A stretch of DNA of 48,273 nt from Betaproteobacteria bacterium (GCA_016202615.1 JACQOI010000055.1:1-48273); one strand, 5' to 3'. Numbered from the stretch's first letter, positions 8,326-29,170 are shown. A program made the numbers and translations. Notes: a model not told the origin generated them from the letters alone.

Positions 8326-8357
8326 GCGAAGCGATGAGGATCGCAACTGAGTTTTCT

Positions 8358-8556: not shown

Positions 8557-8648
8557 ATGGCTTGAATCGAATAGGGCCGGTCGGGCCTACGATGATGACC
8601 GGCTGGATGCTGAGCTCGCTGCATAATCCATTTTGAGACACGCTCTGC

Positions 8649-9931: not shown

Positions 9932-11335
9932 CTACGAGACCTTTGTCTCGATCGCACGGCTCCAAAGCGATGTGGCCGTCCGTACGTTCTCCAGATTCTC
10001 AAAATTAAAGGCCGCCTCGATCGTCCCGTCAATTTGCTTCGGAGCGAAGATGTCCGCGGCGTAGTGTCGGAACTTCTCCTTCAGCTCTTGGTCAGTTACT
10101 CGACCGTATTCCGACCACTTCTCCAAATCGTGCCCGTCAGCGGTCAACTTGACGCGCGTCTTGAGTGACCACGGAGATAGCGAGGCATCGTTCTCCATGC
10201 TGTGCTTCAGTTCTGCAATCGCGGCTTCGTCCCGCCTGAGCTGAACGTTTTCGGCGATTTTCGTCACGAGAGGGTCATTCAGGGCCGTTGACCACGACCT
10301 CTGGGGGATTCCGGCAACGACTGCGCCTACCTGATACGGCAGACTAAATTGGGCCATGATGTAATTCGTGACCTGAGCCGTTCCGAAAGCTTGCTCTGTG
10401 CCGATAGGCCGCCATATCTCAATTGCCCTAATGGACTGCGGGGCGATCTGGTGATCGGTGACGAGCCGAGCGATGGTGTGCAAGGCTTGTTGGTTGTGCG
10501 TTCCCGCAGGGTACCGTTTGAACTGAGACTCAAGTATCCACCACCGTCTGCCTAGTCCCTCCGTCAGCGCATCCCGGTCGTGAAGCCTCGTTCCCACGGA
10601 GCGGTAGTACCCGTCATTATCGTCCAGAATATTGGGATCTCCGGTAAAGCCTTCGCGAGCCAGCATCGCCGCGCTGAGAGCTGTGGCAGCCATGTTTCCC
10701 ATTAGCGGGCCGTACTTCGACAGGACTACAGTTCCCTTAGCAAAGAACGTCCGATTCGCCGGGGGCGCATGCACTCCTGTCATTGCCAAACAGTTTACAA
10801 TAGCTTCAGGGTCGAGCCCGAGCATTTTCGCTGACGAAGCCGCCGCTCCAAAGATGGTCCAGTGCAAGATCAGCTCATGCGTAAGATCCCGGTTGATTTC
10901 GGGTGGTAGCGCCAGTTTGACTCGTGCAGCTACCTCGAAACCGCATGCGATCGCCTCGAGCACCTGTCTTCCGGAAGCGCCCCGTTCTTCGCCGAGCGCG
11001 AGCGCTGTAAAAATGACGATGCCGGCCAACCCCTGCGACCACAATAAGTTGCTCGTAAGATCCAGCGAGATCGACATTTGCGAATTCGCAAACGCAGCGC
11101 AATACGGCGGCACTTTGTCGCTCATGCCGATAATCGTCGCGTCTCCGCCACCCCGGCCCGCCAACGCAACTCCCGTACGGGCCGCTATGACGCCGCCAGG
11201 GATTCTGTGGGCTGCGACGACCGTGGTCACGGCGTCAAGGATCTGTCGTTTGCACGCGTGCCTAACCTCTTCCGGCAGCTCGCTCCAAGACAGATCGTGA
11301 ACGAATGAGGCTAGACGATGAATAGCGTCAGTCAT
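9932..11335 (-). CDS. MmgE/PrpD family protein
   Basis: 467-aa ORF. The N-terminal LASFVHDLSWSELPEEVRHACKRQILD and the length are typical of the family. It is a paralogue of 6940-8325 and 24441-25838. Confidence 0.8.
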   Translation of the reverse strand: MTDAIHRLASFVHDLSWSELPEEVRHACKRQILDAVTTVVAAHRIPGGVIAARTGVALAGRGGGDATIIGMSDKVPPYCAAFANSQMSISLDLTSNLLWSQGLAGIVIFTALALGEERGASGRQVLEAIACGFEVAARVKLALPPEINRDLTHELILHWTIFGAAASSAKMLGLDPEAIVNCLAMTGVHAPPANRTFFAKGTVVLSKYGPLMGNMAATALSAAMLAREGFTGDPNILDDNDGYYRSVGTRLHDRDALTEGLGRRWWILESQFKRYPAGTHNQQALHTIARLVTDHQIAPQSIRAIEIWRPIGTEQAFGTAQVTNYIMAQFSLPYQVGAVVAGIPQRSWSTALNDPLVTKIAENVQLRRDEAAIAELKHSMENDASLSPWSLKTRVKLTADGHDLEKWSEYGRVTDQELKEKFRHYAADIFAPKQIDGTIEAAFNFENLENVRTATSLWSRAIETKVS

Positions 11336-11558
11336 GGCCTGCTTTTCGGCAAGGGATAGGAAAACCTATCGAGTTTACCCACCCGGCGCGATCCTGTGCA
11401 TGACCGGAACTCCTTCGTAAAGGCGCCGAGACCCGCATCAGGCGCGGATTTAGGCGTCGCGATCGCGTTCATGTGGCGCATCGGGCCTGTACCAGTCGAC
11501 ATGATGACAAATTTTACACCCGATGAACCCGTTCAGGCAAAGCGCAGGCGCGCGGGAG

Positions 11559-11639
11559 CTTCGTCATGCCGGTCTCGAACGGCGACAACCAATTCAAGGG
11601 TTACAACGTCAAGCCGGTACACGGCGGCCACGCCGCCAT
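11559..11639 (+). pseudogene. 81-bp relic of an MmgE/PrpD gene
   Basis: CTTCGTCATGCCGGTCTCGAACGGCGACAACCAATTCAAGGGTTACAACGTCAAGCCGGTACACGGCGGCCACGCCGCCAT matches 7500-7580, inside the PrpD-like CDS, with about 5 substitutions. It has no surrounding ORF and abuts the lactonase stop codon. Confidence 0.85.
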
Positions 11640-11644
11640 TTACG

Positions 11645-12996: not shown

Positions 12997-13120
12997 TACT
13001 TTGAGCTCGTCGCCACGTCATCCACGTGAATATTAGCCGGGCGCTCACGCTGCCACCGCGCGGCGATTGAAGCGAATCCGCGCGGCACGTAGTATATGAC
13101 AAACGCTAAAAAGCCAAAAG
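12997..13120 (+). repeat. ~122-bp direct repeat, copy 2 (partner at 439-560)
   Basis: See 439-560. This copy is followed immediately by the terminal AGAAATAG...AATGCGCCCGTTGCC motif of the R repeat family. Confidence 0.85.
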
Positions 13121-13146
13121 AAATAGAGAAAATTAATGCGCCCGTT

Positions 13147-13335
13147 GCCGCATTCGAGAACGCGGTCGATGACCTCGTGTTCCACCGGGCGGCGCAAGCG
13201 CCCTGGACTGCGCAGCTCACCGGCGTGCCGGATCACGCACCGGTAAAGCGGGCTCGCGCGCGGGTTGTTCGGGTGATATGCGCCCCTTGGTGTGCCACCG
13301 CCCCGACATCCGCCGTCTCGTTTGCCGCCCGCCAT
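13147..13335 (-). pseudogene. N-terminal fragment of an IS91-family (Y2 HUH) transposase, zinc-binding-domain region
   Basis: Minus-strand frame reads MAGGKRDGGCRGGGTPRGAYHPNNPRASPLYRCVIRHAGELRSPGRLRRPVEHEVIDRVLECG. This fits my recollection of the IS91-family N-terminus (Y-P-x-x-P-x-x-S/T-x-LY-x-x-V..H......P-x-x-V-x-x-E-x-x-x-x-L-x-CG). Homology stops at CG, where the R-repeat terminus begins. Confidence 0.45.
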
Positions 13336-13373
13336 AGCGGACGAGCTCAGCAGGAGCTTTGCGTGCGCTGTAA

Positions 13374-15131
13374 TTACTGCGCTCTGGTGTTTTTCGCAGC
13401 CGCGAGCTTTTCGTCCCAATCGGCGGGTAACTCGATCTTGCTCGCAACGGCATAACCTATGGGGCCATTCGCGGCAAACACGTAAGCGGTGTTCCGCAGC
13501 GGATCACCGGTTACGGCGACAAGGAAATCGTCCGCCTCCCAGGCGATCGGAACCAGCCGATCGGGATCATCCGACTCGTAATAGAACTTCGGTATATGTC
13601 CGAGCCGGACTTCTTCAGCAAGGTTCCAGACCTTGCGATTCGTCCAGTCCCGCAGAATTCTTTCGAACTGCCAGGCAGGGATGCGAGCCTTCTGGAACAG
13701 AAACTCCTTGACGTCCTGCTTGGACCATCCAGCCGCGGCTATCATCTCGGCGAGCAAGGGGCTCAGGAGAATGAGGGGACGCAGCGCCCCACCCCCGTGC
13801 GACCCGACTGCGAACATGAGCTGCCATGTGTGCTCACGCGTGACGCCATCCGCAACATACGTAAGCAGTTCTTCAGGCGTTGTCCCCGATACCGATGACA
13901 ATGGATTCCCACCACTATAGCGCTGGATCAGGACGGTATTGTCCGAGGACTCGAAGCCCATCCCTACATTGTTGGGCGGCCAACCTATTTTCTTGAGAAC
14001 GTCCTCGTTCTCCGCAAGGACAACACGCCAGGTTCCGCCGTACGTGGCCTTGTCGTTACCGCCGATCAGGAAGCCCGCGACATTGCGCAGATAGAGGCGC
14101 CAGAATCGGCCAATTGATGTGTTCGGAAGTACGCCGTCGCGCAGCACGCCCTGCCCGTAATTGAAGCCCAGTTGCTTGATGATGGGTCCATTGAGAATGA
14201 TGAGCGTGTCGGAGCCCGGCGTACTGCCACTGTGCTCAACCCCGTATTCCGGGTCGAGCATGGCCTGCACCAATGCGACCAGGATGGGCATGTACTCGGG
14301 GCGACATCCGGCCATGACGCCGTTTACGGCGATGCTGCGCACTGTAGCCGCGCGGTTGTCAGGCAATACGATGCCGAGCACTTCAGCGGGCTTTCTGTCG
14401 GTGAACCCGAGAAAAGCCTCTATCTTCGCCTTTGTCGGCGGGACAATCGGCAGGCTGTCACTCCACTGGCGCGTGCGAAAGAACTCGTTGACTTCGTCAT
14501 GGCTGCCGGAAAACACGATTTCGCAGTCGCTGGGTTCGTCATCCTTGCCGAAATGGTCCGCTGCCGTTGCAGTAAGGTTCTGGATCACGCGATCGATCGT
14601 TATGCCCAGAATGTTCTTCTGCAGCACAGCGGTCGCCTGGACGGCGGGATGTCCCGGCAGCAAGGCCAGGGGAAGATCTGGCATGCCCAACCCCATGGAA
14701 CAGGCCGCGGCCTGCCCCATGAAACCTTCTGCCACGATCGAGGAAGACGGGATACCGCCGGCTTCCGCGGCTGCGCTGGCCCGCAACACGGCGGGCGTGC
14801 AGCTCCCTCAGGCGCCTACCGCAGCAATGGCTGCATCGACACCAAGTTCCTTGAATCGAGCCGGCAGCGCGGCAACCACTTCCCGTTCGTCATGTCCATG
14901 AGTGCTGCCGAACTCTTTCCAGCTGACGAACTTCATGTCCTTGAAGCGTGATTTCAATTCCTTTTCCATCCAGGCAAAGATTTCTTCACCCCGATAGAGA
15001 TAGTTCCAGACGAAAGCTATCGTCTTGCCGTCGAACGATTTCAGCCTGGGCGCGAGCGGTTTTGTCCTGACCTGCCGCGGACTTCTCGGCCAGTAGACTT
15101 CATAGTGCCCATCGTTCTCGCGTCCGCTCAT
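13374..15131 (-). CDS. Predicted selenoprotein: UGSC (UxxC) module fused to an uncharacterised AGCRPEYMP domain (585 aa with Sec at TGA 14808-14810)
   Basis: The ORF track splits it into 14808-15131 (…AAIAAVGA + TGA) and 13374-14789 (GTG-initiated). Both are in one frame. The codons between them read U-G-S-C-T-P-A with no other stop, and no RBS precedes the GTG. The same interruption occurs in two paralogues, and a SECIS-like hairpin follows the TGA. Confidence 0.8.
14771..14802 (-). promoter_or_regulatory. SECIS-like recoding hairpin, 5 nt 3' of UGA 14808-14810
   Basis: mRNA is CUGCAC-GCCCGC-[CGUGUU]-GCGGGC-CA-GCGCAG. It has a 6-bp perfect upper stem, a 2-nt bulge, a lower stem with 5 of 6 pairs, and a G/U-containing apical loop. 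Confidence 0.6.
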
Positions 15132-15175
15132 AGAGCTTCTCTAATAACCAGGTGTCGCAACTGATCGCCCGATAC

Positions 15176-16144
15176 TCAATCGGGCTTGATGGCCGCCTCT
15201 TTGATGACTTTTGCCCAGAAGACACGTTGTGCCTTGATGTAGGCGAGAAATTCCGCTGGTGTCACAGACGAGGTGTCGAGCCCTTCTTTCTTGAGTCCGT
15301 CCCTGATACGCGGGGTGGCGAGGACTTTGGTGAGCGTGTCGTAAATCCGGTCTACGGTATTCCTGGGCGTTCCCGCAGGTGCAAGCACGCCCATCCAGGC
15401 GCGAACATCAAATCCGGGATATCCCGCTTCCCGCATGGTCGGGATGTCAGGGGCCTGCGATGAACGATTCGGCCCCGTGACGGCGAGTGCAACAAGCTTG
15501 CCGCTCGCAGCCTGGGGAAGCGATGAAGCGAAACTGCCGAACAGAAGCTGCACCTCGCCGGAGAGGATCGCCAGCGTTGCGGGACCGCCACCCTTGTAGG
15601 GCACGTGAACCAGGTCGATCCCGGCCATTGTCCTGAACACCTCAGCGGCGAGGTGGTTCGGGCTTCCAACGCCCGCGGAGCTATATAAAAAGGGGCTTGA
15701 TTTCGCTCGGGACACCAAGTCTTCAACGGAAGTGGCCCGCACTGACGGATGAACGACCAGCAGGTACTGCGCGGAGCCGATCAGCGTGATTGGCGCGAAA
15801 TCCTTCTCCGGATCAAACGTTATGTCGGTATAGAGGCTCGGGTTAACAACCAGCGCTGAGCTATGCCCGAGGAGCAGCGTGCATCCGTCGCTGGTCGCAC
15901 GAGCAACGATCGCTGTGCCGATGTTTCCCGCAGCGCCTGATCGATTGTCGATGACAATTTGTTGCCCTGTGGCCTCTCCCCAGCGGGGCGCCAGCAGCCG
16001 TGCCAGGGAATCTGCGCCGCCACCCGGCGGGAACGGGACCACCAGTCGAACCGCTTTGCTGCCACACTGCTGCGCGAGCGCCGTACCGGACATAAAGCAC
16101 GTCAGGGAAAAAACAATCACACTGAGAAGAGAATGACTATTCAT
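15176..16144 (-). CDS. Bug family (TctC-like) substrate-binding protein
   Basis: 322-aa ORF with a signal peptide, AVRLVVPFPPGGGADSLAR, IDNRSGAAGN, YKGGGPA and FWAKVIKEAAIKPD. It ends 44 bp upstream of the selenoprotein gene start. Confidence 0.9.
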   Translation of the reverse strand: MNSHSLLSVIVFSLTCFMSGTALAQQCGSKAVRLVVPFPPGGGADSLARLLAPRWGEATGQQIVIDNRSGAAGNIGTAIVARATSDGCTLLLGHSSALVVNPSLYTDITFDPEKDFAPITLIGSAQYLLVVHPSVRATSVEDLVSRAKSSPFLYSSAGVGSPNHLAAEVFRTMAGIDLVHVPYKGGGPATLAILSGEVQLLFGSFASSLPQAASGKLVALAVTGPNRSSQAPDIPTMREAGYPGFDVRAWMGVLAPAGTPRNTVDRIYDTLTKVLATPRIRDGLKKEGLDTSSVTPAEFLAYIKAQRVFWAKVIKEAAIKPD

Positions 16145-16179
16145 TCGCGGACCGTATCACTGAGGTCGAAGCGCGGTGC

Positions 16180-16755
16180 TCAGTCGATCTTAGCACCCGA
16201 ATCGCGCACGACCTTCGCCCATTTGCCGAGATCGGTTTTGAGAAACGCGGCAAACTGCCCGGGAGTGTTGTGTACGGGCTCTGCACCGAGCACCGCCCAG
16301 CGTTCTTTGATTTCGGGAAGCTGCACGATCTTGCTGATTTCCGAATGGAGCCGGTTGATGACCGCCGTTGGCGTGCCGGCCGTCGCCAGTACTCCGTACC
16401 AGACGAAAATCTCGTAGCCGGGCAATCCCGACTCGCCGATCGGCGGCAGCTCGGGCGCTGCCGAAGTGCGCCCCGCACCTGTCGTGCCGAGTGCACGCAG
16501 CTTGCCTGCCTTGACCTGCGGCAGCGCGATCGGCGCGCCGGGAAACATGATCGAAATCTGTCCGCCGAGCAAATCGCTGAATGCATTCGTCACGCCTTTG
16601 TACGGCACGTGCACGAGCTTGACGCGGGCGAGACTGTTGAACATCTCGCCTGCGAGATGCAGCGCGCTGCCATTGCCGGCGGACCCGTAATTAAGCTGCC
16701 CGGGTTTCGATTTTGCGAGCGCAATCAGCTCCTTCACCGATTTGACCGGCAGTAA
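16180..16755 (-). pseudogene. 5'-truncated Bug family gene (C-terminal ~190 codons only)
   Basis: Homology starts at ...LPVKSVKELIALAKSKPGQLNYGSAGNGS, normally around residue 120 of Bug proteins. The signal peptide and the PPGGG segment are missing. The breakpoint carries a 14-bp tandem duplication, CAGTAATCTGGGTC x2, at 16750-16777. Confidence 0.8.
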
Positions 16756-16899
16756 TCTGGGTCCAGTAATCTGGGTCGAAGTAACTTTCCTTGGCACGTG
16801 CGTTGATGCGGATAACCAAATTGCGAGTCGATATCCACATCCATCCTGGCATCGCGCGGCGTGCCAACCGGCGGTGAGGCCGACGACGCGGCACCGTGC

Positions 16900-18639
16900 T
16901 TACCTTCCCAGTTCGACGAGTCTGCGATCCCAGTCTTTCGGGAGCCGGATCTGCTTGCCAACTGGATAGCCGAGCAAGCCGTTATGCGCAAAGACGTACG
17001 CATTGTTGCGCAAGGGATCACCCGTCACCGCAATCATGAAATCTTCTGCTTCCCAAACAATCGGCACCATGCGGTTCGGATCGTCCGACTCGTAGAACAC
17101 CTTCGGTATGTGCCCGAGCCGCACTTCCTCTGCAAGATTCCAAACAGACCTGATGTTCCAATCGTGCAGCATGCGCTCAAACTGCCATGCCGGAATCCGC
17201 GCATGATCGAAAAGATAGCGCTTCAGGTCCGCCTTCGACCAGCCTGTCTTGGCAATCGTCTCCGCGATGATCGGGCTCAACACAACAAGCGGCCGCAGCG
17301 TTCCCGCATGCGGGCCCACCGTAAATATGAGATGCCACGAGGTCTGTTTCAACACCGCATCCGCAACGTAAGGAAGCATCTGTTCTGGCGTGGTGCCGGA
17401 AACTGACGATAATTGGTTGCCCCCGGTGTAGCGTGCGATGGTTACCGTGTTCTCGCCCGCGGAGAAACCCATCTCAACGCTGTTGGATTCCCAGCCAATG
17501 TTATTAAGAACGTCCTCGTTCTCCGCAAGCACCACCCGCCAGGTGTTGCCGTAGGTGGCTTTGTCATTTTTGTGATGTAGGAATCCAGCGACGTTCCGGA
17601 GGTACAGCCGGAAGAACCGGCCCACCGATGTATTGGGCAGAAGGCCGTCGCGCAGAACGCCCTGCGTGTAATTGAAGCCGAGCTGCTTGATGATCGGCCC
17701 GTTCAGGATGATGAGCGTATCACCCCCAGGCGTGTTGCCGCTGTGCTCGACCCCGTATTCTGGGTCGACCATCGCCTCGACCAACGCAACGAGGATCGGC
17801 ATGTACTCGGGGCGGCAGCCCGCCATCACGCCATTCACCGCGATGTTCCAGATGGTTGCGGCGCGGCTGTCAGGCAGAATGATGCCGAGCACCTCGTCGG
17901 GGTTGCGGTCGGTGAAGAGCAGGAACGCCTCGATCTTCCCCCTCGTCGGAGGAACGATCGGCAGCCCGTCGCTCAGCTCGTTCTCGCAGAAATAACGGTT
18001 CACCGCATCGAAGCCGCCCGCAAAAATAATGTCGCGCGCCCCAGGTTCCGGCTTCTCACTCGCCACCGTAGGTGTGCCGGTCAGGTTTGCGATGACCCGT
18101 TCAACGGTGCCTTCGAGAACAGCGCGCATCAGTTCCTCTTTGCTCTGCACGCCGGGGTGGCCCGGCATGCGCGCAATCGGCAGGTTCGGCATGCCGAGCC
18201 CGACGGAAATTGCCGCCGCCTGGCCGATGAAACCTTCTGAAACAAGTGATGACGAAGGAACGCCGGCTGCCTCGCATACTGCACTCGCCCGCAACACGGC
18301 GGGCGTGCAGCTCCCTCAAGAACCCATACCGGAGATGGCGGCGTCCACCCCCAGGTCCTTAAAACGCTGCGGCAGGGATGCGAGGACCTCGCGTTCGTCT
18401 CTGGCGTGCGTGCTGCCGAATTCGCGCCAGCTCACGAAGCGTACATCGGGAAAGCGTGCCTTAAGCCCCTCCTCAAGCCATCCGAAAACTTCGTCGCCGC
18501 GGTACACGAAATCCCACAACTGGGCAACGGTCTTACCCTCTAGCGTTTCGAGCCGCTTCGCTAGACGCGTCAACTGCACTTGCCGCCGACCGCGCGGCCA
18601 CAGCACTTCGTAGTATCCATCGTTGTTCACAGTAGACAT
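16900..18639 (-). CDS. Predicted selenoprotein: UGSC (UxxC) module fused to an AGCRPEYMP domain, paralogue 2 (579 aa with Sec at TGA 18316-18318)
   Basis: ORFs 18316-18639 (…AAISGMGS + TGA) and 16900-18297 are in one frame, joined by U-G-S-C-T-P-A. By eye it is about three quarters identical to 13374-15131 along the whole length. Confidence 0.8.
18279..18310 (-). promoter_or_regulatory. SECIS-like recoding hairpin, 5 nt 3' of UGA 18316-18318
   Basis: mRNA is CUGCAC-GCCCGC-[CGUGUU]-GCGGGC-GA-GUGCAG, giving 12 Watson-Crick pairs with a 2-nt bulge. The 29 nt after the UGA are identical to paralogue 1. Confidence 0.65.
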
Positions 18640-18692
18640 GCCAGCCTCCCATGGTAGTAAGACAGTTTTCCAACGCGCGCATCACCCGCAAC

Positions 18693-19685
18693 TCACTCGG
18701 GTTTGATGTCCGCGTCTTTGATCACTTTGGCCCAGAGCGTTTTTTCGGACTTGATGTATGCGGCAAAGTCCTCCGGCGTACTGCCGGAGGGCTCGAAGCC
18801 CGCTCTCTTGAGAGCCTCCTGCACCTCCGGCATCGAGAGGAGTTTCAGGAGGTCGTGGTTGAGGCGGGTCACGATGGCCTTGGGCGTGCCGGCCGGCGCA
18901 AGCACGCCGTACCAAGCCCGAACGTCGAAGCCCGGCAAGCCCGACTCCTGCATCGTCGGGACGCTCGGAACCTCATGTGAGCGCTTCGGCCCGGTGACCG
19001 CCAGCGCCTTCACGCTTCCCGCTTTCACATGCGGCAGCGATGAGGCGAAACTGCCAAAAAGGATCTTCACCTCTCCAGACAGCACGGCGAGGGCCACGGC
19101 ACCGCCACCCTTGTAGGCAACATGAATTATATCCACGCCGGCCCTGCCTTTGAAAAGCTCCCCCGCGAGGTGATTGGGGCTGCCGATCCCAGGCGACCCA
19201 TAGGGGAACTGACCGGGTTTTGACTTGAGCAGTACGATCAAGTCCTGCAGTGAGTTGGCTTGGACCGAGGAGTGCACCACAAGCAGGTACTGCGCGGATC
19301 CGAGGAACGCGATCGGCGCGAAGTCCTTCTCTGAGTCAAAGGGCAGATTCTTGTACAGGCTGGGGTTGACTACGAGCGGCGTGCTGAATCCCCACAGCAG
19401 CGTGTAGCCGTCGGGCTGCGCCCTCGCCGCGATTCCATAGCCGATGTTACCGGCTGCGCCGGAACGGTTGTCCACGATGACCCGCTGGCCCGCAAGTTCC
19501 GTCAACTTTAGCGCCACGATCCTTGCGAACGTGTCTGTCCCGCCGCCGGGTGGGTAAGCGACGATCAAGCGGATCGGGCGGCTTGGATAGCTCTGGGCAA
19601 CAGCGGTGTTGGCAATTAGGCAAGTTGCTAGGCCAAGTACGGCCGCCACCAGCGCTGCAATGGCCAATACTCGTAATTCATTCAT
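18693..19685 (-). CDS. Bug family (TctC-like) substrate-binding protein
   Basis: The track ORF extends to 19853 through a repeat. A plausible start is the ATG at 19685 (MNELRVLAIAALVAAVLG..., preceded by GGAAGAGGAGGA). The protein has YPSRPIRLIVAYPPGGGTDTFAR, YKGGGAV and LWAKVIKDADIKPE. Confidence 0.85.
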   Translation of the reverse strand: MNELRVLAIAALVAAVLGLATCLIANTAVAQSYPSRPIRLIVAYPPGGGTDTFARIVALKLTELAGQRVIVDNRSGAAGNIGYGIAARAQPDGYTLLWGFSTPLVVNPSLYKNLPFDSEKDFAPIAFLGSAQYLLVVHSSVQANSLQDLIVLLKSKPGQFPYGSPGIGSPNHLAGELFKGRAGVDIIHVAYKGGGAVALAVLSGEVKILFGSFASSLPHVKAGSVKALAVTGPKRSHEVPSVPTMQESGLPGFDVRAWYGVLAPAGTPKAIVTRLNHDLLKLLSMPEVQEALKRAGFEPSGSTPEDFAAYIKSEKTLWAKVIKDADIKPE

Positions 19686-19707
19686 CGCGATTCCTCCTCT
19701 TCCATCG

Positions 19708-19867
19708 AGAAATAGGAAAATCAATGCGCCCGTCGCCGGCGTCCTGTGACTATGCAACGCTGCAGCGATGCCGGATCGGTGCTCGGTGCGCCCGATCGGG
19801 GCTGCCCGCGCGTGCTCCACCGTCCGCGTCCGTCCTGCCCAGGTGCTTTGCAAAGTCGTTGCGGCAA
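19708..19867 (-). repeat. R repeat, copy R1 (160 bp)
   Basis: AGAAATAGGAAAATCAATGCGCCCGTCGCCGGCGTCCTGTGACTATGCAACGCTGCAG...CTTTGCAAAGTCGTTGCGGCAA. By my count it differs from R2 (20403-) by 4 substitutions and one 3-nt indel. It fills the gap between the PNPOx-like gene and the Bug gene. Confidence 0.9.
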
Positions 19868-19898
19868 GTCAGGCGAAGCCGAAAAGCGGACTCGTGGG

Positions 19899-20327
19899 TT
19901 ACGCTTCCCGCTGCATGATCACCTTGCGCGTCTCAATGACTTTGTCCACGCGGATGATGACTGCCGTGCCCTTGCGCTCTGGGTCACGGTCAAGTTCCGC
20001 CTGAACCGTGCGCGCCATGACGGCGTCGCGCAACTCCCCGCTTGGGTGAAGTTCCGCAACGCCCACGAACTTCCAGGTCTTGCGCGCAGCCGGATTCCGG
20101 TAGAGCAGGCATATCTTCGGATTCTCTTTGAGCGCCAGCTCGGTCTGGCCGTGGGACCGTTCCCAGAAAGCGAGGTGCTCGCTGTCCCATACCATCACGC
20201 TCCCCTTGAAAACGACATCGGGTACGCCATTCGCGAGCGCCGTAGCCACCATCACCGGATTCCCGTCCGCAAGCGATGTCGCAAGCATTGCCTTCATCTC
20301 TTCTGTTAGTGCAATCATCCCGTTCAC
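19899..20327 (-). CDS. Pyridoxamine 5'-phosphate oxidase-like FMN-binding family protein
   Basis: 142-aa ORF. Its size and segments (NPVMVATALANGVPDVVFKGS, ICLLYRNPAARKTWKFVG) fit the small split-barrel PNPOx-like family. Assignment is from recollection. Confidence 0.55.
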   Translation of the reverse strand: MNGMIALTEEMKAMLATSLADGNPVMVATALANGVPDVVFKGSVMVWDSEHLAFWERSHGQTELALKENPKICLLYRNPAARKTWKFVGVAELHPSGELRDAVMARTVQAELDRDPERKGTAVIIRVDKVIETRKVIMQREA

Positions 20328-20402
20328 TTTCCTGATCGTTTTCCACGGTGGAAACGCTACGCATGGGTAATGTGCTACAGAATCTTACCCCTGTTGCTAC
20401 AA

Positions 20403-20667
20403 AGAAATAGAAGGAAAATCAATGCGCCCGTCGCCGGCGTCCTGTGACTATGCAACGCTGCAGTGATGCCGGATCGGTGCTCGGCGCGCCCGATCGGGGC
20501 TGCCCGCGTGTGCTCCACCCTCCGCGTCCGTCCTGCCCAGGTGCTTTGCAAAGTCGTTGCGGCAAATTATGCAGTCCCCGGGCGCGCCAAGTCAAACGCA
20601 GGGCGCGCCGCCCTGCGCCCACGTAACCTTGGCACCGGTAGCGAACTCGGTGCTTAGTTGCTCGCTT
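20403..20667 (-). repeat. R repeat, copy R2 (long form)
   Basis: It shares the 160-bp R1 core and a further ~100 bp (GCGGCAAATTATGC.GTCCCCGGGCGCGCCAAGTCAAACGC...CCTTGGCAC.GG.AGCGAACT.GGTGCTT.GTTGC) with R3. It is contiguous with the IS91-like fragment at 20657-20835. Confidence 0.85.
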
Positions 20668-20835
20668 TATCGACCAGAAACTCCAGCACCGCACGCCGAA
20701 AGCCCTCAGCAAGCAGACTTCCCGGCACAGCCGGCAGCGTGACAAAGCGCCCATCGGGCAGCAATGCTCCGTCGGCGGCGAGCACGGGTACGTGCGGGTT
20801 GAAGTTGACGAGAAGGCGCAGTATGCGTCACCTCA
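20657..20835 (-). pseudogene. Internal fragment of an IS91-family (Y2 HUH) transposase
   Basis: Minus frame reads RLLVNFNPHVPVLAADGALLPDGRFVTLPAVPGSLLAEGFRRAVLEFLVDKASN*. This resembles the HUH region of Y2 transposases as I recall it (LNFHPHxHxLVxDGxxxxDGxFxxLP......LxExFRxxVLxxLVxK). The HUH histidines are partly degraded and stops lie on both sides. Confidence 0.5.
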
Positions 20836-20969
20836 TCAAATCATGGTGTCGGCAAGTTGACAATGCCGAGTTGGCTCCTCACCACCGGGTTTACAGCAGA
20901 GATGAAATCTAGAATGGCGAAGATTGGCAAGGTGATCGACGGTGCCGGAATCTGCGAGGAACGAATGCG

Positions 20970-21968
20970 CTAATCCGCGCGTATGCCAGCAGCTTTCACC
21001 ACTTTTGCCCATTTATGAAATTCACTATTAACATAGGCACTGAACTCTGCCGGCGAGCTGCTGACGGCGGGGGCAAGACCACCTGCTGCATACTGTGCCC
21101 TTACATCCGGCAACTTGATTATTCTCGAAATCTCGGCATGTATTTTGTCTATGATTTCCGTGGGCGTTCCGGCGGACGCGAATAAACCGTACCACGCCCG
21201 CACATCAAAGCCGGGAACACCCGCTTCGCTGACAGTGGGGACGTCTGGGATCGATGGGTCGCGTGTATTGGCTGTAATTGCCAGCAATCGCAGTCTTCCC
21301 GTCTTTATGTGTGGCAACACTGGCAGATTGCCCGCAAACATTAGATCGATACGACCAGCCACAAGGTCGACGGTATACTGTGGGCTGCCTCGGTAGGGAA
21401 CATGGACCATGCTCACTGCAGCCATTGATTTAAAAAGCTCGCCAGCCAGGTGAGTGGTCGACCCGGTTCCTCCAGAACCGTAATTGAGCTGTCCGGGTTT
21501 TGCTTTCGCCAAAGCGATCAGTTCTTTCACTGATTTGACGGGTAACGATGGGTGGACAACCAAAATCAAGTACGTCGTTGCGGCGAGGGAGATAGGCGCA
21601 AAATCGCGCAGGGTATCGTACGGGATTTTCTTATAGAGGCTCGCGCTCACCGCGTTAGTGCCGGGCGTCCCGAGCAACAAGTTATAGCCATCGGGCGGCG
21701 ATTTGGCGACGATCTCCGCTCCCAGGAGCCCGCCGGACCCTGCGTGGTTGTCTACGATCACGGGTTGGCCCCATGCCTCCGAAAGCTTGGTTGCAATCGG
21801 CCGTGCAATGACGTCGAGCACGCTGCCTGGAGGAAAAGGGTTGACGATTCTTACGGCCTTTTCCGGGTAGCCTGCGCCAAGACAAGGCAGTGCCGCAAGC
21901 AACGTAAACGCGCAAACCAAGGGTTTAGACGGCATAGCTTTGCACCTTGAGAGGATATTCCCGGACAT
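20970..21968 (-). CDS. Bug family (TctC-like) substrate-binding protein
   Basis: 332-aa ORF (alternative start at M12, 21935) with a signal peptide, AVRIVNPFPPGSVLDVIAR, VDNHAGSGG and KWAKVVKAAGIRAD. Confidence 0.9.
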   Translation of the reverse strand: MSGNILSRCKAMPSKPLVCAFTLLAALPCLGAGYPEKAVRIVNPFPPGSVLDVIARPIATKLSEAWGQPVIVDNHAGSGGLLGAEIVAKSPPDGYNLLLGTPGTNAVSASLYKKIPYDTLRDFAPISLAATTYLILVVHPSLPVKSVKELIALAKAKPGQLNYGSGGTGSTTHLAGELFKSMAAVSMVHVPYRGSPQYTVDLVAGRIDLMFAGNLPVLPHIKTGRLRLLAITANTRDPSIPDVPTVSEAGVPGFDVRAWYGLFASAGTPTEIIDKIHAEISRIIKLPDVRAQYAAGGLAPAVSSSPAEFSAYVNSEFHKWAKVVKAAGIRAD

Positions 21969-22055
21969 CTGTTGGTCGAAGATTCGTCAATCCGAAATAT
22001 CGGACGGGGCGCTCCAAAACAAACCGGACAAAATCGCTAGTCATTTATATAGCAG

Positions 22056-23072
22056 TCAAATTCCCCGAATAATCCGCGTCTGCGGCATCCCCGCTGCGAT
22101 ATAGACATCCTGGGGACCGGGTCCCCCGGCAACCACGACACAGATTTCATCCGGACCACCGGATCGCCACACCGTTTCCGCATCGCCTCGGCCGGCCGCA
22201 CGTGCGGTCGCAACGAAGGCCTTGGGGAAGTAGCTGGCCGGAAGGCGAGCGAGCTCCCACAGTCGCTGCTGGATGTCTCGCTTCGAAAGGCCCTCTTCAT
22301 ATAATGAATGAACATGGTTGACCCCAAGCAGCAGTAGCACGCCGCCGCCGCCAAACATAGGCGGCATGCTGGTCGCAATCTGACGCAGCGTTTCGTCTGC
22401 GCCGACACCGTCCCCACCCGAGATATTGCAGAAGTTGAAAGCCCTAAATACGGTGACGGTGCTGTCCTCGCGCTTGAAGCCCCGATCGACGTGGAACGGC
22501 GTCCAGGGATTCTCTTCTTCGTTTTCACCGCACATATAAGAGTAGCGCAGCGGAGAGCTGAAACTGGATTTGGAGTAAACGCCAGGCAGCGCTCCGCCCA
22601 CGTTCAGCAAGATGAGACGCATGGCGCGGCCTATCGTGGTATTGGCACGCCAGCCAGGGCCGAGGCAACCAATCCCACAGTTGATGTCGAGCTTTCCCCG
22701 CACGGGGCCGTTGACCAGCAGAAAGGGGGCCATAGCGTTAGTGCCGATCTGCAGCGGCTCCAACGGAAACCGCGGATCGCTCAACGCTTCGACGGCCGCG
22801 ATGATGACGGGCATATATTCCGGGCGGCATCCAGCCATGATGGCATTGACAGCAATTGCTTCTACGGTCGCAGGCCCTTTGCGCGGCGGCAAGACACCAA
22901 TGATTTCATTTCCGTCCCGCCCGGATGCTTGGACAAACTGCGCGACGCTCTCGTGAGTGGCCGGGATGATGGGGGCACCATCGGTCCAACCCTGGTCGTA
23001 GGCATGTTCAAAAGCGCACGTGATGAGTTCGGCCACCGAAGCAGCTTCGATATCCATGTAAGGGCGCGTCAC
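22056..23072 (-). CDS. Uncharacterised AGCRPEYMP-domain protein, stand-alone homologue of the C-terminal part of the two fused selenoproteins
   Basis: 338-aa ORF. TDGAPIIPATHESVAQFV...IAVNAIMAGCRPEYMPVIIAAVEAL...LLVNGP aligns with SDSLPIVPPTKAKIEAFL...IAVNGVMAGCRPEYMPILVALVQAM...IILNGP of 13374-15131. It starts 17 bp after the UGSC gene stop. Confidence 0.75.
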   Translation of the reverse strand: MTRPYMDIEAASVAELITCAFEHAYDQGWTDGAPIIPATHESVAQFVQASGRDGNEIIGVLPPRKGPATVEAIAVNAIMAGCRPEYMPVIIAAVEALSDPRFPLEPLQIGTNAMAPFLLVNGPVRGKLDINCGIGCLGPGWRANTTIGRAMRLILLNVGGALPGVYSKSSFSSPLRYSYMCGENEEENPWTPFHVDRGFKREDSTVTVFRAFNFCNISGGDGVGADETLRQIATSMPPMFGGGGVLLLLGVNHVHSLYEEGLSKRDIQQRLWELARLPASYFPKAFVATARAAGRGDAETVWRSGGPDEICVVVAGGPGPQDVYIAAGMPQTRIIRGI

Positions 23073-23089
23073 AGCTCGTTCATCCTTTT

Positions 23090-23752
23090 CTACACCGGAA
23101 TCGATGAGCGAACGATACCCCGGGGCCGAATTTGCTCTTTGGCCATATCCCTGGATCGACGCTCGATTTCGCCTGGCTTAAGCGTAAGCCCGTCAATGAT
23201 CGTGGGCAGCATGGCTTCGACTCGTGCGCGCAGGGCATCAAAGTCAAGCTCGCGAATGGGATTCTTTGTTTCAGCAATAACGATGTAAGGAAATCCCTGC
23301 GTCGACGCCATACGCCGCCCGAACTTGGCAAACGTATCGGTGGCGATCATGACTGTGGGAATGCCGCGTTGTTCCAGCGCCGGCGTAACGTGGCTACACC
23401 ACGTCGTGCATGACCCTCAATCGCCGGTGGCGGTAATGGCGACGTCAACGCGTCGTGCGAGCGCGTCCAGGTGCTCCCGCATCCCGTCGAGCAGCTTTCC
23501 CTCCTTGCTTGCCGGCGCTTCGCGGACCGGTTGTTCCATCACGATTGCTTTCACGCGGTAGCGCTCCTCAAGCAGTGTGCCAAGAACTTTCAGGATGCGC
23601 ACTGCCGATGGACGCCAGTTGGCCACCAGTCCTACCACTTTGTCGTCAAGGCTCGGAGGCCGTGGGGCGAGCGCGTTCGGAGCGCCTTCGTCAAGATAAT
23701 CAGCAAGTGGAGAAACCATTCTCAATTTAAGGTAACCCATAGCACATTCCAT
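23090..23752 (-). CDS. Predicted stand-alone UGSC (UxxC) selenoprotein (220 aa with Sec at TGA 23417-23419)
   Basis: ORFs 23417-23752 (…VAITATGD + TGA) and 23090-23350 are in one frame. The bridging codons read U-G-S-C-T-T-W-C-S-H-V-T-P-A-L-E-Q-R-G-I-P-T-V with no stop. The N-terminal start choice (23752, 23740 or 23719) is uncertain. Confidence 0.75.
23388..23404 (-). promoter_or_regulatory. SECIS-like hairpin, 12 nt 3' of UGA 23417-23419
   Basis: mRNA is ACGUGG-[UGUAG]-CCACGU, a 6-bp perfect stem with a G/U-containing loop. It is shorter than in the other two copies. Confidence 0.45.
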
Positions 23753-23962
23753 TCATGAAAAAGATGACGCCTTTTCGGCCGCGGATCACAGTGAAAACGC
23801 CGACCAGCATTGACTCTTGGCTGCACAGGAGAGAAGCTCGTTTACGATAACACCATCCAAATACACCGCCTTGTAGGGCATTGTCAACTTGCTGTATCGG
23901 GCCAACACATATTGCACTGATGGTGTTTGATTAGGAATTGTAGCGGAGAAAGTAGTTTTGGG

Positions 23963-24224
23963 AGAAATAGGAAAACCAATGCGCCCGTTGCCGGCGTCCT
24001 GTGCCAATGCAACGCTGCAGTGATGCGGGATCGGTGCTCGGTGCGCCCGATGGCGCGCGATTGGGGCTGCCCGCGTGTGCTCCACCGTCCGATCCGCGCT
24101 GCCGGAGCGCTTCGCAACGCCCGTTACGGCAAATTATGCTGTCCCCGGGCGCGCCAAGTCAAACGCGCCCTGCGCTCACGTAGCCTTGGCACGGGCAGCG
24201 AACTTGGTGCTTGGTTGCACGCTT
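23963..24224 (-). repeat. R repeat, copy R3 (long form, more diverged)
   Basis: It has the same start, AGAAATAGGAAAACCAATGCGCCCGTTGCCGGCGTCCTGTG. It carries a 10-nt insertion (GGCGCGCGAT) relative to R1/R2 and other indels. Weak similarity to the R2/IS91 fragment may continue to about 24300. Confidence 0.8.
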
Positions 24225-24440: not shown

Positions 24441-25838
24441 TTATTTCGTAAGGGTCAGCTGAACGAGTGCGTCGGCCCGGTCGTGTTGGTCGAGATCGCG
24501 ACAGGTCGCAATAATCGATTCGAACTGAGCCGCGGGGATCGGTAAGCCTGGAATGACGCCGCGAATGCGGCGCGCCTCCTCCTCGAAGTCCCACATGAAC
24601 TCGCGCCCGGTGGACTGCTTCGTATAGCTTTTCCCATCCTTGGTATAGATCGTGATCCGCGGACCGAAGAGCGTCATGTGGTGCGACGGAATGATCGTCA
24701 CCCGTTTCATAAGATCAAGTACCTCCGGGGGGTCGTCGGCGGCGGTCGGCTTGACCCCGGAGCTCCGCAGCACGGGAAAACCCCGTTTCACGACTCCGTA
24801 CGCGGCGTAGTAGGACGTGCTTCCCGGCGCCCGCGTTAGATCTTCCCTCCGGATCGGGAAAGCGGGGCTCGGGTACTGCGTCTCGAGCCAGTTCACCACG
24901 GCCTCGACGCGATCAACATCTTCATATTTGATGTTGTTCTCCTCGCAAAGCTTCGCCGTCACCTCGACGTGAGCAATGTTGTAGCCGGCAGTCGAGTAGA
25001 TGCGGTAGAGCGTTTCGAGAAAAATCCATGTCTTGCCGAGGTCGGCGGTGATCTTCGCCAGGCTCGTTTTCGTGTCGCCGACAAAGCTGTAGGTAAGCCG
25101 GCCCAGGTTGTTTCCTGCGTACGCGTGATAAAAGCCCGCGTCGCCTTCGAGTACGGTCTCGCCGCCCACGTGCCCCTGCTGCGCCAGCGCGATCGCGAGC
25201 ATGGCATTGCGCGCTGCCGCGCCTTCACGCAGCGCGCGGCCTCCGCTGCGTATCCCTTCGAGGTTGCCTCCCGCCAGGCTCGCGCAGAGCGCGATCGCGC
25301 TGTTCATCTGCTCTTCGGTCAAACGCAGGATCTTCGCGGCCGCTACTGTAGCGCCAAAGATGCCGAACACCGGACCCGCGTGGAAGCCGCGCGACATCAC
25401 CGTCGGAATGAAGTCGGCCGCCATCCGCTCCATGACCTCGTAGCCGGCGGCGATTCCGGTGATGAAGTCGCCGCCCGACGCGCCTGCCGTCTCGGCTGCG
25501 ACGAATGCCGCCGGAATAATGCTCGTGCCCGGGTGGGTCAGCATGCGGAAGGAATCCAGCTTGCCGCCGGCCATTGCCATCTCCGAGTTGGCAAACGCGG
25601 CGCCGCCTCTCGTCACCTTGGCGCCGTTCACCATAATGGTTGCGCCATTGCGCACGCCGGCTTCTTCTTCGCTGATCAGCTTCACGGCCTGCTGCCCGGC
25701 GGGTGATTGAGAGCCGAGGAGCACCGAGGCGAGCCCGTGTAGTGTCACGCCCTTCGCACGATCGATCACTTCGGGCGGAACATCTTCGTAGCGCAGCCCG
25801 ACGGCCCACTGCGCGAGATGACGACTTAGAGATGCCAT
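24441..25838 (-). CDS. MmgE/PrpD family protein
   Basis: 465-aa ORF. The N-terminal LSRHLAQWAVGLRYEDVPPEVIDRAKGVTLHGL and the overall length are typical of the family. Confidence 0.8.
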   Translation of the reverse strand: MASLSRHLAQWAVGLRYEDVPPEVIDRAKGVTLHGLASVLLGSQSPAGQQAVKLISEEEAGVRNGATIMVNGAKVTRGGAAFANSEMAMAGGKLDSFRMLTHPGTSIIPAAFVAAETAGASGGDFITGIAAGYEVMERMAADFIPTVMSRGFHAGPVFGIFGATVAAAKILRLTEEQMNSAIALCASLAGGNLEGIRSGGRALREGAAARNAMLAIALAQQGHVGGETVLEGDAGFYHAYAGNNLGRLTYSFVGDTKTSLAKITADLGKTWIFLETLYRIYSTAGYNIAHVEVTAKLCEENNIKYEDVDRVEAVVNWLETQYPSPAFPIRREDLTRAPGSTSYYAAYGVVKRGFPVLRSSGVKPTAADDPPEVLDLMKRVTIIPSHHMTLFGPRITIYTKDGKSYTKQSTGREFMWDFEEEARRIRGVIPGLPIPAAQFESIIATCRDLDQHDRADALVQLTLTK

Positions 25839-27067: not shown

Positions 27068-27116
27068 TTTTGATTGCGAAATGGAATAACACCGCGTGGC
27101 CTTGCGGTCTTTTCGT

Positions 27117-29051: not shown

Positions 29052-29170
29052 GGCTTTCCCTCCGGGGGAAGATGATGCTGCAGAAGCTCGAGCAACTGCG
29101 GCCAATTTTACAACATTGTTCAAGGACCGAATTCGCTCGATGCTATCTCGAAAATTCTCAAACGGCAATT

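Follow-up and report, generated by a model that had tools for sequence, protein, structure and literature searches.

Three UGSC-family genes interrupted by an in-frame UGA in a groundwater betaproteobacterium: probable selenoproteins paired with an uncatalogued domain

The UGSC family of selenoproteins has been catalogued since 2007, and its function is uncharacterised (PMC1976440, PMC2398784, PMC13188914). In the Global Ocean Sampling data, 255 UGSC forms with selenocysteine (Sec) stood against 21 with cysteine (PMC2398784), and a fusion of UGSC with an unnamed domain was described from these data in 2008 as 'UGSC/Unknown_1' (PMC2398784, Fig. S1A). Most bacterial selenoproteins with a U-x-x-C motif are thiol oxidoreductases (PMC2398784, PMC13188914). 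In PrdB from Clostridioides difficile, a reductase selenoprotein of the Stickland selenoprotein-B type, Sec151 is the catalytic nucleophile, and the U151C variant is inactive (PMC11229817).

We analysed a window of 48,273 nucleotides on a groundwater betaproteobacterial contig from a metagenome-assembled genome (MAG; GCA_016202615.1, JACQOI010000055.1). A previous, sequence-only reading had described three pairs of open reading frames on the minus strand, each split by an in-frame TGA, and all three were found with exactly the coordinates, the TGA codons and the bridging peptides that it had given. Straight read-through translation reveals one in-frame stop per locus, which is TGA each time. 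Locus 1 (13374..15131, minus strand) is a complete read-through gene of 585 residues, in which a UGSC module (residues 11-168, approximately) is fused to an uncatalogued C-terminal domain, the C-domain (residues 200-585, approximately); the protein aligns end-to-end with full-length homologues that carry Cys at the Sec position. Its predicted Sec codon (14808..14810, minus strand) lies in the motif A-U-G-S-C within the peptide VGA-U-GSCTPAVLRA. Locus 2 (16900..18639, minus strand) encodes the same fusion in 579 residues, with the predicted Sec codon at 18316..18318 (minus strand; motif S-U-G-S-C, peptide MGS-U-GSCTPAVLRA). The two loci are tandem paralogues, duplicated with a period of about 3.5 kb (repeats D2, D3 and D9).

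The third locus (23090..23752, minus strand) has a different architecture. Judged from its sequence and its relatives, it is a stand-alone UGSC selenoprotein gene of up to 220 residues, in which the predicted Sec codon (23417..23419, minus strand) lies in the motif D-U-G-S-C and the peptide TGD-U-GSCTTWCSH. Relatives begin M-L-S-P-L-P-V-Y-L-D-E, which makes Met12 at 23719 its probable true start. The partner is the next gene (22056..23072, minus strand), a stand-alone C-domain of 338 residues (333 as annotated) whose homologue makes up the C-terminal two thirds of the products of loci 1 and 2. The earlier description of three paralogues of one broken gene was thus right about the TGA in all three but had omitted this partner gene, which makes locus 3 a split form rather than a ~580-residue fusion. 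Several copies in one stretch, which the same reading had considered unusual, turn out to be nothing out of the ordinary in this lineage: on related contigs, fusion copies are found next to split ones, and a further paralogue, HY525_04800, is found on another contig of the same MAG.

Genes for TctC/Bug-family solute receptors lie 45 nt upstream of locus 1 (15176..16144, minus strand; PF03401, 198 bits), 54 nt upstream of locus 2 (18693..19853, minus strand; 231 bits) and 88 nt downstream of the locus 3 partner gene (20970..21968, minus strand; 232 bits). These adjacent genes do not form one orthologous group, and their proximity is weak evidence because TctC genes are very abundant in these genomes. 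A truncated TctC fragment at 16180-16797 indicates some gene decay nearby. The neighbours of the UGSC genes are catabolic, comprising genes for MmgE/PrpD, a CoA-transferase, an acyl-CoA dehydrogenase and TauD besides the TctC receptors, and not stress genes.

All three products match both UGSC profiles, Pfam PF24696 ('UGSC') and NCBIfam NF041046, and the name 'UGSC family (seleno)protein' that the sequence-only reading had given is correct. PF24696, which has a gathering cutoff of 25 bits, scores 92.5 bits for locus 1, 95.8 for locus 2 and 135 for locus 3. With NF041046, the scores of 47.8, 46.4 and 103.9 bits lie below the equivalog cutoff of 125 bits, which is exceeded by the related protein P0138 (131.9 bits). 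On these profile scores, the window proteins are family members by Pfam, yet fall outside NCBI's strict equivalog. They share with the published family the U-G-S-C motif, the domain and the prevalence of Sec over Cys forms. Not every family member has the redox motif; it is missing entirely from a few. The fusion in loci 1 and 2 resembles 'UGSC/Unknown_1' in joining a UGSC module to a conserved domain with a conserved Cys, and Unknown_1, matched by its description only, is likely the C-domain of these loci; the C-domain family differs in comprising 6,829 clusters at 50% identity and in occurring also as a separate adjacent gene. The family has already been described, and this fusion probably has been as well. 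What we add is the flavodoxin-like fold, the remote kinship to PrdB/GrdB, the constant pairing with the C-domain and the thioredoxin-reductase-like (TrxR-like) neighbour.

The codon at the interruption is strongly conserved. Within the fusion subfamily, the column holds TGA at 85 of 86 sites, 81 of them from the genomes of 80 other species, and in the split subfamily it is TGA in all 67 metagenomic relatives of locus 3; neither TAA nor TAG occurs in the 152 sites of the two subfamilies. The sequence-only reading had proposed looking for orthologues with CGSC and for homologues with ordinary stops at this position; the former were found and the latter were not. Full-length homologues have Cys at the Sec column in 11 of 11 cases, and Cys is also present there in P0138, in a Natrinema protein and in about 20 of the best 150 family representatives, which contain C-G-x-C; by comparison, 79 of these 150 begin immediately past the TGA. 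Between loci 1 and 2, synonymous sites are saturated (pS 0.70-0.88), whereas pN is 0.20-0.27, on both sides of the TGA. By this measure, the two genes are old paralogues under purifying selection on either side of the interruption.

These data bear on the idea that the three genes are pseudogenes, or that the TGAs are assembly or sequencing errors. It draws some appeal from the metagenomic origin of the assembly and from the truncated TctC fragment close by. In contrast, three diverged paralogues share this codon at one column, as do 149 sites in related loci from other genomes and metagenomes, pN is far below pS on either side, and the genes contain no further stops or frameshifts. The TGA counts and the pN/pS values effectively refute this idea, which we regard as next to impossible; they likewise uphold the earlier argument that nonsense mutations would very rarely strike the same column by chance.

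A SECIS-type element, for which the sequence-only reading had proposed a search after each TGA, was indeed found in the form of a hairpin that is retained across relatives, including at synonymous sites. In locus 1, the hairpin (14771..14802, minus strand) spans positions 9-40 counted from the U of the UGA and has a stem of 11-12 bp, a 2-nt bulge and the loop CGUGUU; its energy of -16.4 kcal/mol ranks 7th of 576 windows of the same length in the gene. That of locus 2 (18279..18310, minus strand) has a 12-bp stem, a 2-nt bulge, the same loop and an energy of -20.3 kcal/mol (rank 3 of 570), and that of locus 3 (23385..23407, minus strand) has the stem GACGUGG/CCACGUU, the loop UGUAG with G23 and U24, and an energy of -10.4 kcal/mol (rank 7 of 558). 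All three are thus among the best 1.2% of windows. The distance from the UGA to the start of the hairpin is 8 nt in fusions and 14 nt in the split form, and the loop contains GU. In the fusion subfamily, the proportion of paired cells is 94.6%, whereas slid controls reach 23-54%; a compensatory change from G-C to A-U is seen in three sequences. Codons +6, +7 and +9 are each represented by a single codon in 83 of 83 sequences, whereas the majority codon at equally invariant flanking residues accounts for 51-69%. The split subfamily has its own hairpin, whose core GACGTGGTGTAGCCACGTC is unchanged in 51 distinct relatives. Because the sequence hardly varies, covariation is sparse, and the structural case therefore rests mainly on the conservation of synonymous sites.

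The E. coli fdhF-type SECIS is a hairpin within the coding sequence, a few nucleotides past the UGA, whose apical loop contains a G and a U some 22-25 nt from the UGA. The hairpins described here likewise follow the UGA shortly within the coding sequence and have G and U in the apical loop, which in the split subfamily are exactly G23 and U24. They differ in stem sequence, in that no bulged U was identified, and, in the fusion type, in the 2-nt bulge on the 3' side. A search against Rfam returned no SECIS match. Placed directly downstream of the UGA and with G/U in the apical loop, the hairpins are predicted SECIS elements.

The MAG is currently annotated as if the TGAs were real stops, so that each locus would yield a peptide of about 107 residues and a separate downstream protein starting from GTG or ATG. 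Gene callers agree with the deposited annotation in listing the downstream frames as separate 'hypothetical proteins' (P0001, P0139), and most database entries are proteins of about 465 residues that begin just past the TGA. However, no purine-rich Shine-Dalgarno sequence precedes the assumed starts at 14789, 18297 and 23350, as had been noted previously: each GTG (14789, 18297) is preceded by gcacgcccgcc and the ATG (23350) by cattcccacagtc. Moreover, both GTG codons sit within the conserved hairpin, the 152 sites are always TGA and never TAA or TAG, and natural Cys forms are single continuous proteins. The predicted flavodoxin-like domain (see below) spans the TGA site, so that termination would halve one domain. 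We consider real termination highly improbable; the genes are real but mis-annotated.

It is also conceivable that the UGA is read through without Sec, as Trp, Gly or Cys by a suppressor tRNA or under a code reassigned genome-wide. Two sequences, P0121 and P0122, show 'W' at the locus 3 Sec column, and none of selA, selB, selC and selD was found within the window. The 'W' entries, however, come from short contigs to which the gene caller had applied another genetic code. TGA terminates 12 of the 29 Pfam-supported genes in the window (TAG 10, TAA 7), from which it follows that the genetic code here is standard. Homologues carry Cys, the sulfur analogue of Sec, in the U/C-x-x-C motif, and the SECIS-type hairpin lies at the canonical distance. 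In relatives, furthermore, Sec machinery adjoins the UGSC genes: 10 of the 80 related loci contain selB (TIGR00475, 404 bits, cutoff 242) at a distance of up to 6 kb, and in five of these it forms the immediate end of the UGSC gene cluster, and next to it is a probable selA, identified by sequence motifs only. Read-through by another amino acid is therefore extremely improbable in our judgement. Taken together, the sequence data make it very probable that the window contains three intact minus-strand genes of the UGSC family, in each of which one UGA is recoded to Sec through the bacterial SelB/SECIS route.

Structure models (pLDDT 86 and 90) gave Foldseek matches to flavodoxin-like proteins with TM scores of 0.45-0.54. 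In these models, the module adopts a flavodoxin-like alpha/beta fold, in which the Sec follows a beta-strand and precedes the N-terminus of a helix, and the U/C-G-S-C motif is placed at this strand-to-helix junction in all three. The published assignment of the family fold is, in contrast, 'likely Trx-like'. We rejected a thioredoxin fold: a Foldseek search with a model of pLDDT 89.6 returned flavodoxin-like alpha/beta/alpha domains and no thioredoxin-fold protein among the best 50.

A loose resemblance to GrdB/PrdB-type subunits had been proposed earlier. The resemblance appears real, in that five of five UGSC domains give matches, centred on the Sec, to the PrdB, GrdB, GrdF or GrdH models (TIGR04483, TIGR01917, TIGR01918), but it is remote, since all of these are sub-threshold (E 2.8e-5 to 0.04; best score 23.7 bits against family cutoffs of 65-602). 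The U falls at a constant column, about 149 of the PrdB model (4/4) and about 347 of the GrdB model (3/3), as placed from sub-threshold matches. PF07355 did not match the UGSC proteins even at E values up to 10. Together, this forms a weak but consistent indication of a distant relationship between the Sec module and the PrdB/GrdB reductase selenoproteins. Both groups have Sec in U-x-x-C and a second protein or domain as partner. The grd operons also hold a thioredoxin-reductase-type gene, and a gene of this type lies near UGSC genes in relatives. The differences are considerable: UGSC scores are far under the family cutoffs, no neighbour or fused domain matches the pyruvoyl proenzyme partner (PrdA/GrdE), and the hosts are mostly uncultured groundwater or soil Proteobacteria and a few cultured non-clostridial genera rather than Stickland-fermenting clostridia. 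In addition, natural Cys forms of UGSC exist, whereas the Cys variant of PrdB is inactive.

The UGSC module (about 170 residues) is always paired with the C-domain (about 340-380 residues), either fused to it or as the next gene. Among split loci, 50 of 50 have a C-domain gene immediately downstream of the UGSC gene, and the same pair is present in haloarchaea. Stand-alone C-domain proteins share 28-31% identity with locus 2. The domain has no match in Pfam, NCBIfam or PDB and no detectable relative of known function. It contains the invariant motif AVN-x-(V/I)-M-A-G-C-R-P-E-Y-M-P, including an invariant Cys, besides several invariant Arg, Lys, Asn and Glu residues, and this set of residues looks like a substrate pocket. 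In 12 of the 80 related loci, and also in L001, a TrxR-like gene (TIGR01292, 221 bits) lies immediately beside the UGSC gene and is transcribed from the same strand; in a thirteenth (L019), it is one called open reading frame away. The stop and start of the two genes often overlap. No such neighbour was found in the window or in split-type loci.

By analogy, we tentatively propose that the UGSC pair may act as a selenol- or thiol-dependent reductase organised like the Stickland selenoprotein-B enzymes (PrdB/GrdB). The C-domain would bind the substrate, probably an imported organic acid, and the Sec would serve as nucleophile or reductant. The Cys of U-x-x-C could then resolve the intermediate to form a selenenylsulfide, and the centre would be re-reduced by NAD(P)H and a TrxR-like flavoprotein, for which many relatives have a dedicated neighbour; for the window loci, this step would presumably fall to the housekeeping system. 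The selenoproteins might instead not be small-molecule reductases of this type but a thiol-disulfide, peroxide or other stress-defence oxidoreductase, a metalloid-handling protein, or a non-redox nucleophile such as an isomerase or hydrolase. The thiol-oxidoreductase activity of most bacterial U-x-x-C selenoproteins (PMC2398784, PMC13188914) speaks for such a role, as do the sub-threshold PrdB/GrdB matches, the missing pyruvoyl partner and the members without a redox motif, and a TrxR-like partner would equally suit a generic disulfide reductase. In contrast, the predicted fold is not thioredoxin-like, the module always comes together with a large conserved domain whose invariant residues look like a substrate pocket, and the neighbours are catabolic rather than stress genes; we think such a role somewhat unlikely.

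In its broadest and more doubtful form, our proposal is that UGSC and the C-domain make up a very widespread two-part reductase, found mainly in Proteobacteria outside the Stickland-fermenting clostridia and, in Cys form, in haloarchaea. As an evolutionary cousin of the Stickland selenoprotein-B reductases, it would rely on the C-domain, with its invariant Cys, for the substrate-activating role of PrdA/GrdE, and on a dedicated TrxR-like flavoprotein for electrons. If true, this would assign a function to a selenoprotein family that ranks among the most abundant in the environment, and a new enzyme family with at least 6,800 sequence clusters would be defined.

Three loci on the minus strand each appear in the ORF list as two ORFs in the same frame (locus 1, 14808-15131 and 13374-14789; locus 2, 18316-18639 and 16900-18297; locus 3, 23417-23752 and 23090-23350). 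Read-through translation gave a single in-frame stop per locus and was otherwise uninterrupted in all three, and our analysis reproduced both the coordinates and the TGA identity of the interruptions reported in the sequence-only reading. The TGA codons lie at 14808-14810 (locus 1, motif A-U-G-S-C), 18316-18318 (locus 2, S-U-G-S-C) and 23417-23419 (locus 3, D-U-G-S-C), all on the minus strand, U denoting selenocysteine (Sec). The downstream starts assumed in the ORF list do lack a Shine-Dalgarno sequence, as that reading had also stated, and two of them, the GTG codons of loci 1 and 2, fall within a conserved hairpin described below. Loci 1 and 2 are taken in by a tandem duplication of about 3.5 kb and are, by sequence, old paralogues. 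Between them, pS is saturated (0.70-0.88) whereas pN is only 0.20-0.27, on both sides of the TGA, so the N-terminal pieces are genuinely coding and as constrained as the remainder of the genes. Ordinary stops in the window comprise 12 TGA, 10 TAG and 7 TAA, a mixture that indicates the standard genetic code. The true terminators of the three selenoprotein genes are TAA (13374-13376), TAA (16900-16902) and TAG (23090-23092), with no TGA among them (n = 3); elsewhere in the window TGA is the most frequent stop.

With U written as C, the three products match the Pfam family PF24696 'UGSC' with 92-135 bits (gathering cutoff 25). The RefSeq name given in the sequence-only reading, 'UGSC family (seleno)protein', indeed exists as NCBIfam NF041046, which loci 1-3 match with 46-104 bits, below its cutoff of 125. 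The family is thus already catalogued and no new kind of object: it is among the selenoprotein families best represented in the Global Ocean Sampling data (255 Sec forms, 21 Cys forms), and the same data yielded a 'UGSC/Unknown_1' fusion (PMC2398784), so that the fusion form was probably reported in 2008. Reviews from 2022 and 2026 still give UGSC as uncharacterised, and our literature search found no functional study of the family.

Relatives were collected in a species-level scan with one genome per species. This yielded at least 546 loci, of which the best 80, carrying 81 sites, were analysed. TGA occupies the Sec column in 81 of these 81 sites, and in the subfamily of locus 3 it does so in all 67 metagenomic relatives with a recognisable motif; neither TAA nor TAG was found there in the 81 fusion-type sites or the 67 split-type relatives. 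A search for CGSC orthologues, suggested by the sequence-only reading, recovered Cys forms: Cys stands at the Sec column in 11 of 11 full-length homologues (about 585 aa), in the database protein P0138 and in one haloarchaeal homologue. Of the 150 top-ranking family representatives, C-G-x-C is present in about 20, and 79 begin right after the TGA. Most relatives (loci L003-L082) have a Cys directly before Sec (C-U-G-S-C), a position held by Ser, Ala or Asp in the window genes; this Cys could form part of a three-residue redox relay across most of the family. Five full-length members (P0263, P0315, P0346, P0378 and P0381) are entirely without a U/C-x-x-C motif. Many records of close relatives (66-70% protein identity) are MAG contigs titled 'Bordetella parapertussis', 'Streptomyces' or 'Dehalococcoidia' (L014, L015, L035-L037 and others; L009, L011, L018 and L050; L016, L017, L023 and L029), titles that look unreliable for contigs of betaproteobacterial type.

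Searches of Rfam gave no SECIS or other relevant RNA family, either at gathering thresholds or with E up to 10 over 13000-24000; comparative analysis was used instead. The hairpin of the fusion subfamily, to which loci 1 and 2 belong, spans nucleotides 9-40 (the U of UGA being nucleotide 1); its 12-bp stem has a 2-nt bulge and carries the loop CGUGUU. Pairing holds in 94.6% of cells over 77 distinct sequences and drops to 23-54% in controls with slid 3' partners. In three sequences a compensatory change from G-C to A-U also changes Ala to Val; covariation is otherwise sparse because the sequence barely varies. Codons +6, +7 and +9 (Ala, Val and Arg) are each represented by a single codon in 83 of 83 fusion-type sequences, and nearby Gly, Glu and Pro residues that are equally invariant have a majority codon in just 51-69%. 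For a putative fusion-type SECIS, this synonymous conservation is the stronger argument than covariation. The split subfamily (locus 3) has a different hairpin, with the stem GACGUGG/CCACGUC and the loop UGUAG, which shows no variation in 51 distinct sequences; its loop contains G23 and U24, the positions important in the E. coli fdhF element. A third stem type lies at the same place in the distant TGA forms of Paracoccus versutus and Acidovorax sp. T1, where one position of the 3' arm is C or U and stays paired (G-C versus G-U). The hairpins of loci 1, 2 and 3 have energies of -16.4, -20.3 and -10.4 kcal/mol; ranked within its own gene against windows of equal length, they come 7th of 576, 3rd of 570 and 7th of 558. 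When the 63 nt that follow each TGA were folded, the z-scores were unremarkable (-0.2 to -0.7), and the signal is clear only with minimal hairpins and relatives.

No selA, selB, selC or selD lies within the 48-kb window. Among the best 80 of the at least 546 loci, 10 have within 6 kb of the UGSC gene a gene that we assign as a bona fide selB from its TIGR00475 match (404 bits, cutoff 242); the chance expectation for a single-copy gene to be so close is well below 1% of loci. In five of the 10 it is the final gene of the UGSC cluster, one related locus shows the order selB, thioredoxin reductase (TrxR)-like gene, UGSC, and a SelA-like gene adjoins selB in a related locus. The selenoprotein reading of loci 1-3 is as secure as sequence analysis of the window and its relatives allows.

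Structure models were made for natural Cys homologues, P0002 and P0138. The model of P0138, a stand-alone Cys form (pLDDT 89.6), is a parallel beta/alpha sandwich with the redox motif between a strand and the N-terminus of a helix. Foldseek matched it to flavodoxin-like domains (query-normalised TM 0.45-0.54) and returned no thioredoxin fold; the modelled Sec module is therefore flavodoxin-like, and the published guess of a Trx-like fold for UGSC is unsupported. All five UGSC modules searched gave weak matches (E 2.8e-5 to 0.15) to PrdB, GrdB, GrdF, GrdH or the TIGR01918 superfamily, spanning Sec in every case. In these weak alignments U falls at about column 149 of the PrdB model (four of four) and about column 347 of GrdB (three of three); the catalytic Sec of C. 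difficile PrdB is at position 151 (PMC11229817). The matches support the loose resemblance to GrdB/PrdB-type subunits proposed earlier, as remote homology of the UGSC module to PrdB/GrdB; membership in that family is unsupported.

In loci 1 and 2 the UGSC module (about residues 11-187) is joined to a domain at the C-terminus (about 380 aa), termed here the C-domain. Locus 3 comprises the module only, and the next gene (22056-23072, minus strand) encodes the same C-domain. Stand-alone C-domain proteins share 28-31% identity with locus 2 and the motif A-V-N-x-(V/I)-M-A-G-C-R-P-E-Y-M-P, whose Cys is invariant. Every split-type locus that has enough sequence (50 of 50) has a C-domain gene directly downstream on the same strand, and haloarchaea have a Cys-form UGSC and C-domain pair annotated side by side. 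The pairing is obligate in arrangement, and the module would never work alone. The C-domain had no Pfam or NCBIfam match with E up to 10; profile and single-sequence searches of the PDB returned nothing for the fusion, the module or the C-domain, and Foldseek of the fusion model (pLDDT 86, pTM 0.88) gave no significant match for this domain. Its family comprises 6,829 clusters at 50% identity (E up to 1e-3) in stand-alone, fused and tandem-duplicated forms. Six members of about 710 aa (P0276, P0334, P0335, P0342, P0351 and P0373) match the C-domain profile in two separate places and lack a UGSC motif, a pattern suggestive of a tandem C-domain. A role for the C-domain as a PrdA-like pyruvoyl proenzyme, with cleavage at Gly-Cys, is speculation only, and we found no evidence for it.

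A TctC/Bug solute receptor gene flanks each UGSC locus on the same strand, at gaps of 45 nt (locus 1), 54 nt (locus 2) and 88 nt (partner gene of locus 3), and MmgE/PrpD, lactonase, PNPOx-like and aldehyde:ferredoxin oxidoreductase genes are nearby. TctC is also the most frequent neighbour among relatives (45/80 fusion loci and 25/80 split loci), and MmgE/PrpD stands beside the split form in 25/80. Further recurrent neighbours are CoA-transferase-like ORFs, named by a family-library check, and acyl-CoA-dehydrogenase-like and TauD-like ORFs, named by sequence inspection only. When UGSC-adjacent TctC receptors were examined as one orthologous group, the result was mostly negative. Because these genomes hold TctC genes in very large numbers, and those adjacent to UGSC do not appear to form one group, we give the TctC link little weight. 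The window itself has seven full TctC genes (5893-6894, 8772-9761, 15176-16144, 18693-19853, 20970-21968, 26063-27184 and 45366-46469) and one fragment, versus a single TctA membrane component (42743-44257), an excess that represents the 'orphan Bug receptor' expansion characterising some Betaproteobacteria. The fragment (16180-16797, minus strand), which separates locus 2 from the next full-length TctC gene, covers only profile positions 85-272 of 274 and is probably a truncated leftover of the tandem duplication.

Three MmgE/PrpD-family genes lie at 6901-8325, 9932-11335 and 24441-25838. The gene at 27117-29168 (minus strand; AFOR_N, AFOR_C) of this betaproteobacterial MAG belongs to the aldehyde:ferredoxin oxidoreductases, which are tungsten or molybdenum pterin enzymes, and its ORF and the next TctC ORF share 68 nt. 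At the window edge, 47157-48002 (minus strand) encodes an FdhD/NarQ sulfurtransferase; FdhD serves formate dehydrogenase, often a selenoprotein. The cut ORF upstream (48003-48273) ends in MSYIGG, a putative MoaD/ThiS-like C-terminus. Gaps around the UGSC and TctC genes are occupied by a 161-nt intergenic repeat (19714-19874, 20412-20572 and 23969-24129, the latter two 96% and 66% identical to the first) and a linked 45-nt repeat (20555-20599 and 24122-24166). Two short REP-like palindromic intergenic families occur in either orientation across the window, one at 1-55, 8356-8428, 26003-26069, 29241-29313 and 38540-38612, the other at 8518-8561, 25867-25910, 30298-30341 and 38615-38658. Dispersed repeats of 98 nt (439-536 and 12997-13094, 96% identity) and 87 nt (7499-7585 and 11558-11644, 93%) are also present, the latter a piece of an MmgE/PrpD gene copied into the spacer beside the lactonase gene.

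Far more specific than the TctC link is that to the TrxR-like gene, which has a CATC motif and matches TIGR01292 with 221 bits (below the cutoff of 343). In 12 of the best 80 of at least 546 species-level loci, and also in L001, a locus of the Cys form, it is an immediate neighbour on the same strand, frequently with overlapping stop and start, and in a thirteenth locus, L019, it is one called ORF away. We tentatively propose, at rather less than an even chance, that the UGSC module and C-domain together are a selenol/thiol-dependent reductase. The C-domain would bind the substrate, Sec would attack or reduce it, the Cys of U-x-x-C would resolve the intermediate to a selenenylsulfide, and a TrxR-type flavoprotein would recycle the redox centre with NAD(P)H. 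As the chief alternative function, the pair may be a generic oxidoreductase acting on thiols, peroxides or metalloids, or a non-redox nucleophile.

The triplication, which had seemed unusual, is not: multiple copies per genome are normal in this lineage, where related contigs carry fusion and split copies together, and the same groundwater Betaproteobacteria MAG has at least one further UGSC paralogue. TGA-form genes are known in cultured bacteria, Paracoccus versutus UW1 and Acidovorax sp. T1. In the latter, a fusion at 5986-7515 of the conjugative IncP plasmid p2-T1 (L168), annotated only for the 96 aa before the TGA, is flanked by IS1071 and IS91 transposases and has TctC receptor, FAD oxidoreductase and isocitrate lyase/PEP mutase family genes as neighbours, a setting which suggests that the UGSC gene moves within mobile catabolic islands.

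The deposited MAG annotation cuts the window genes into hypothetical proteins HY525_02575 and HY525_02600, and thousands of related entries are likewise split at the Sec codon; their correct annotation is as UGSC selenoproteins. Besides this correction, the analysis offers a sharper picture of one of the most abundant selenoproteins of environmental metagenomes, and narrows the question of its function to testable statements: a flavodoxin-like module remotely related to PrdB/GrdB, a fixed partner domain with an invariant Cys, and recurrent TrxR-like and selB/selA neighbours, in a family whose TGA forms occur in tractable cultured bacteria.
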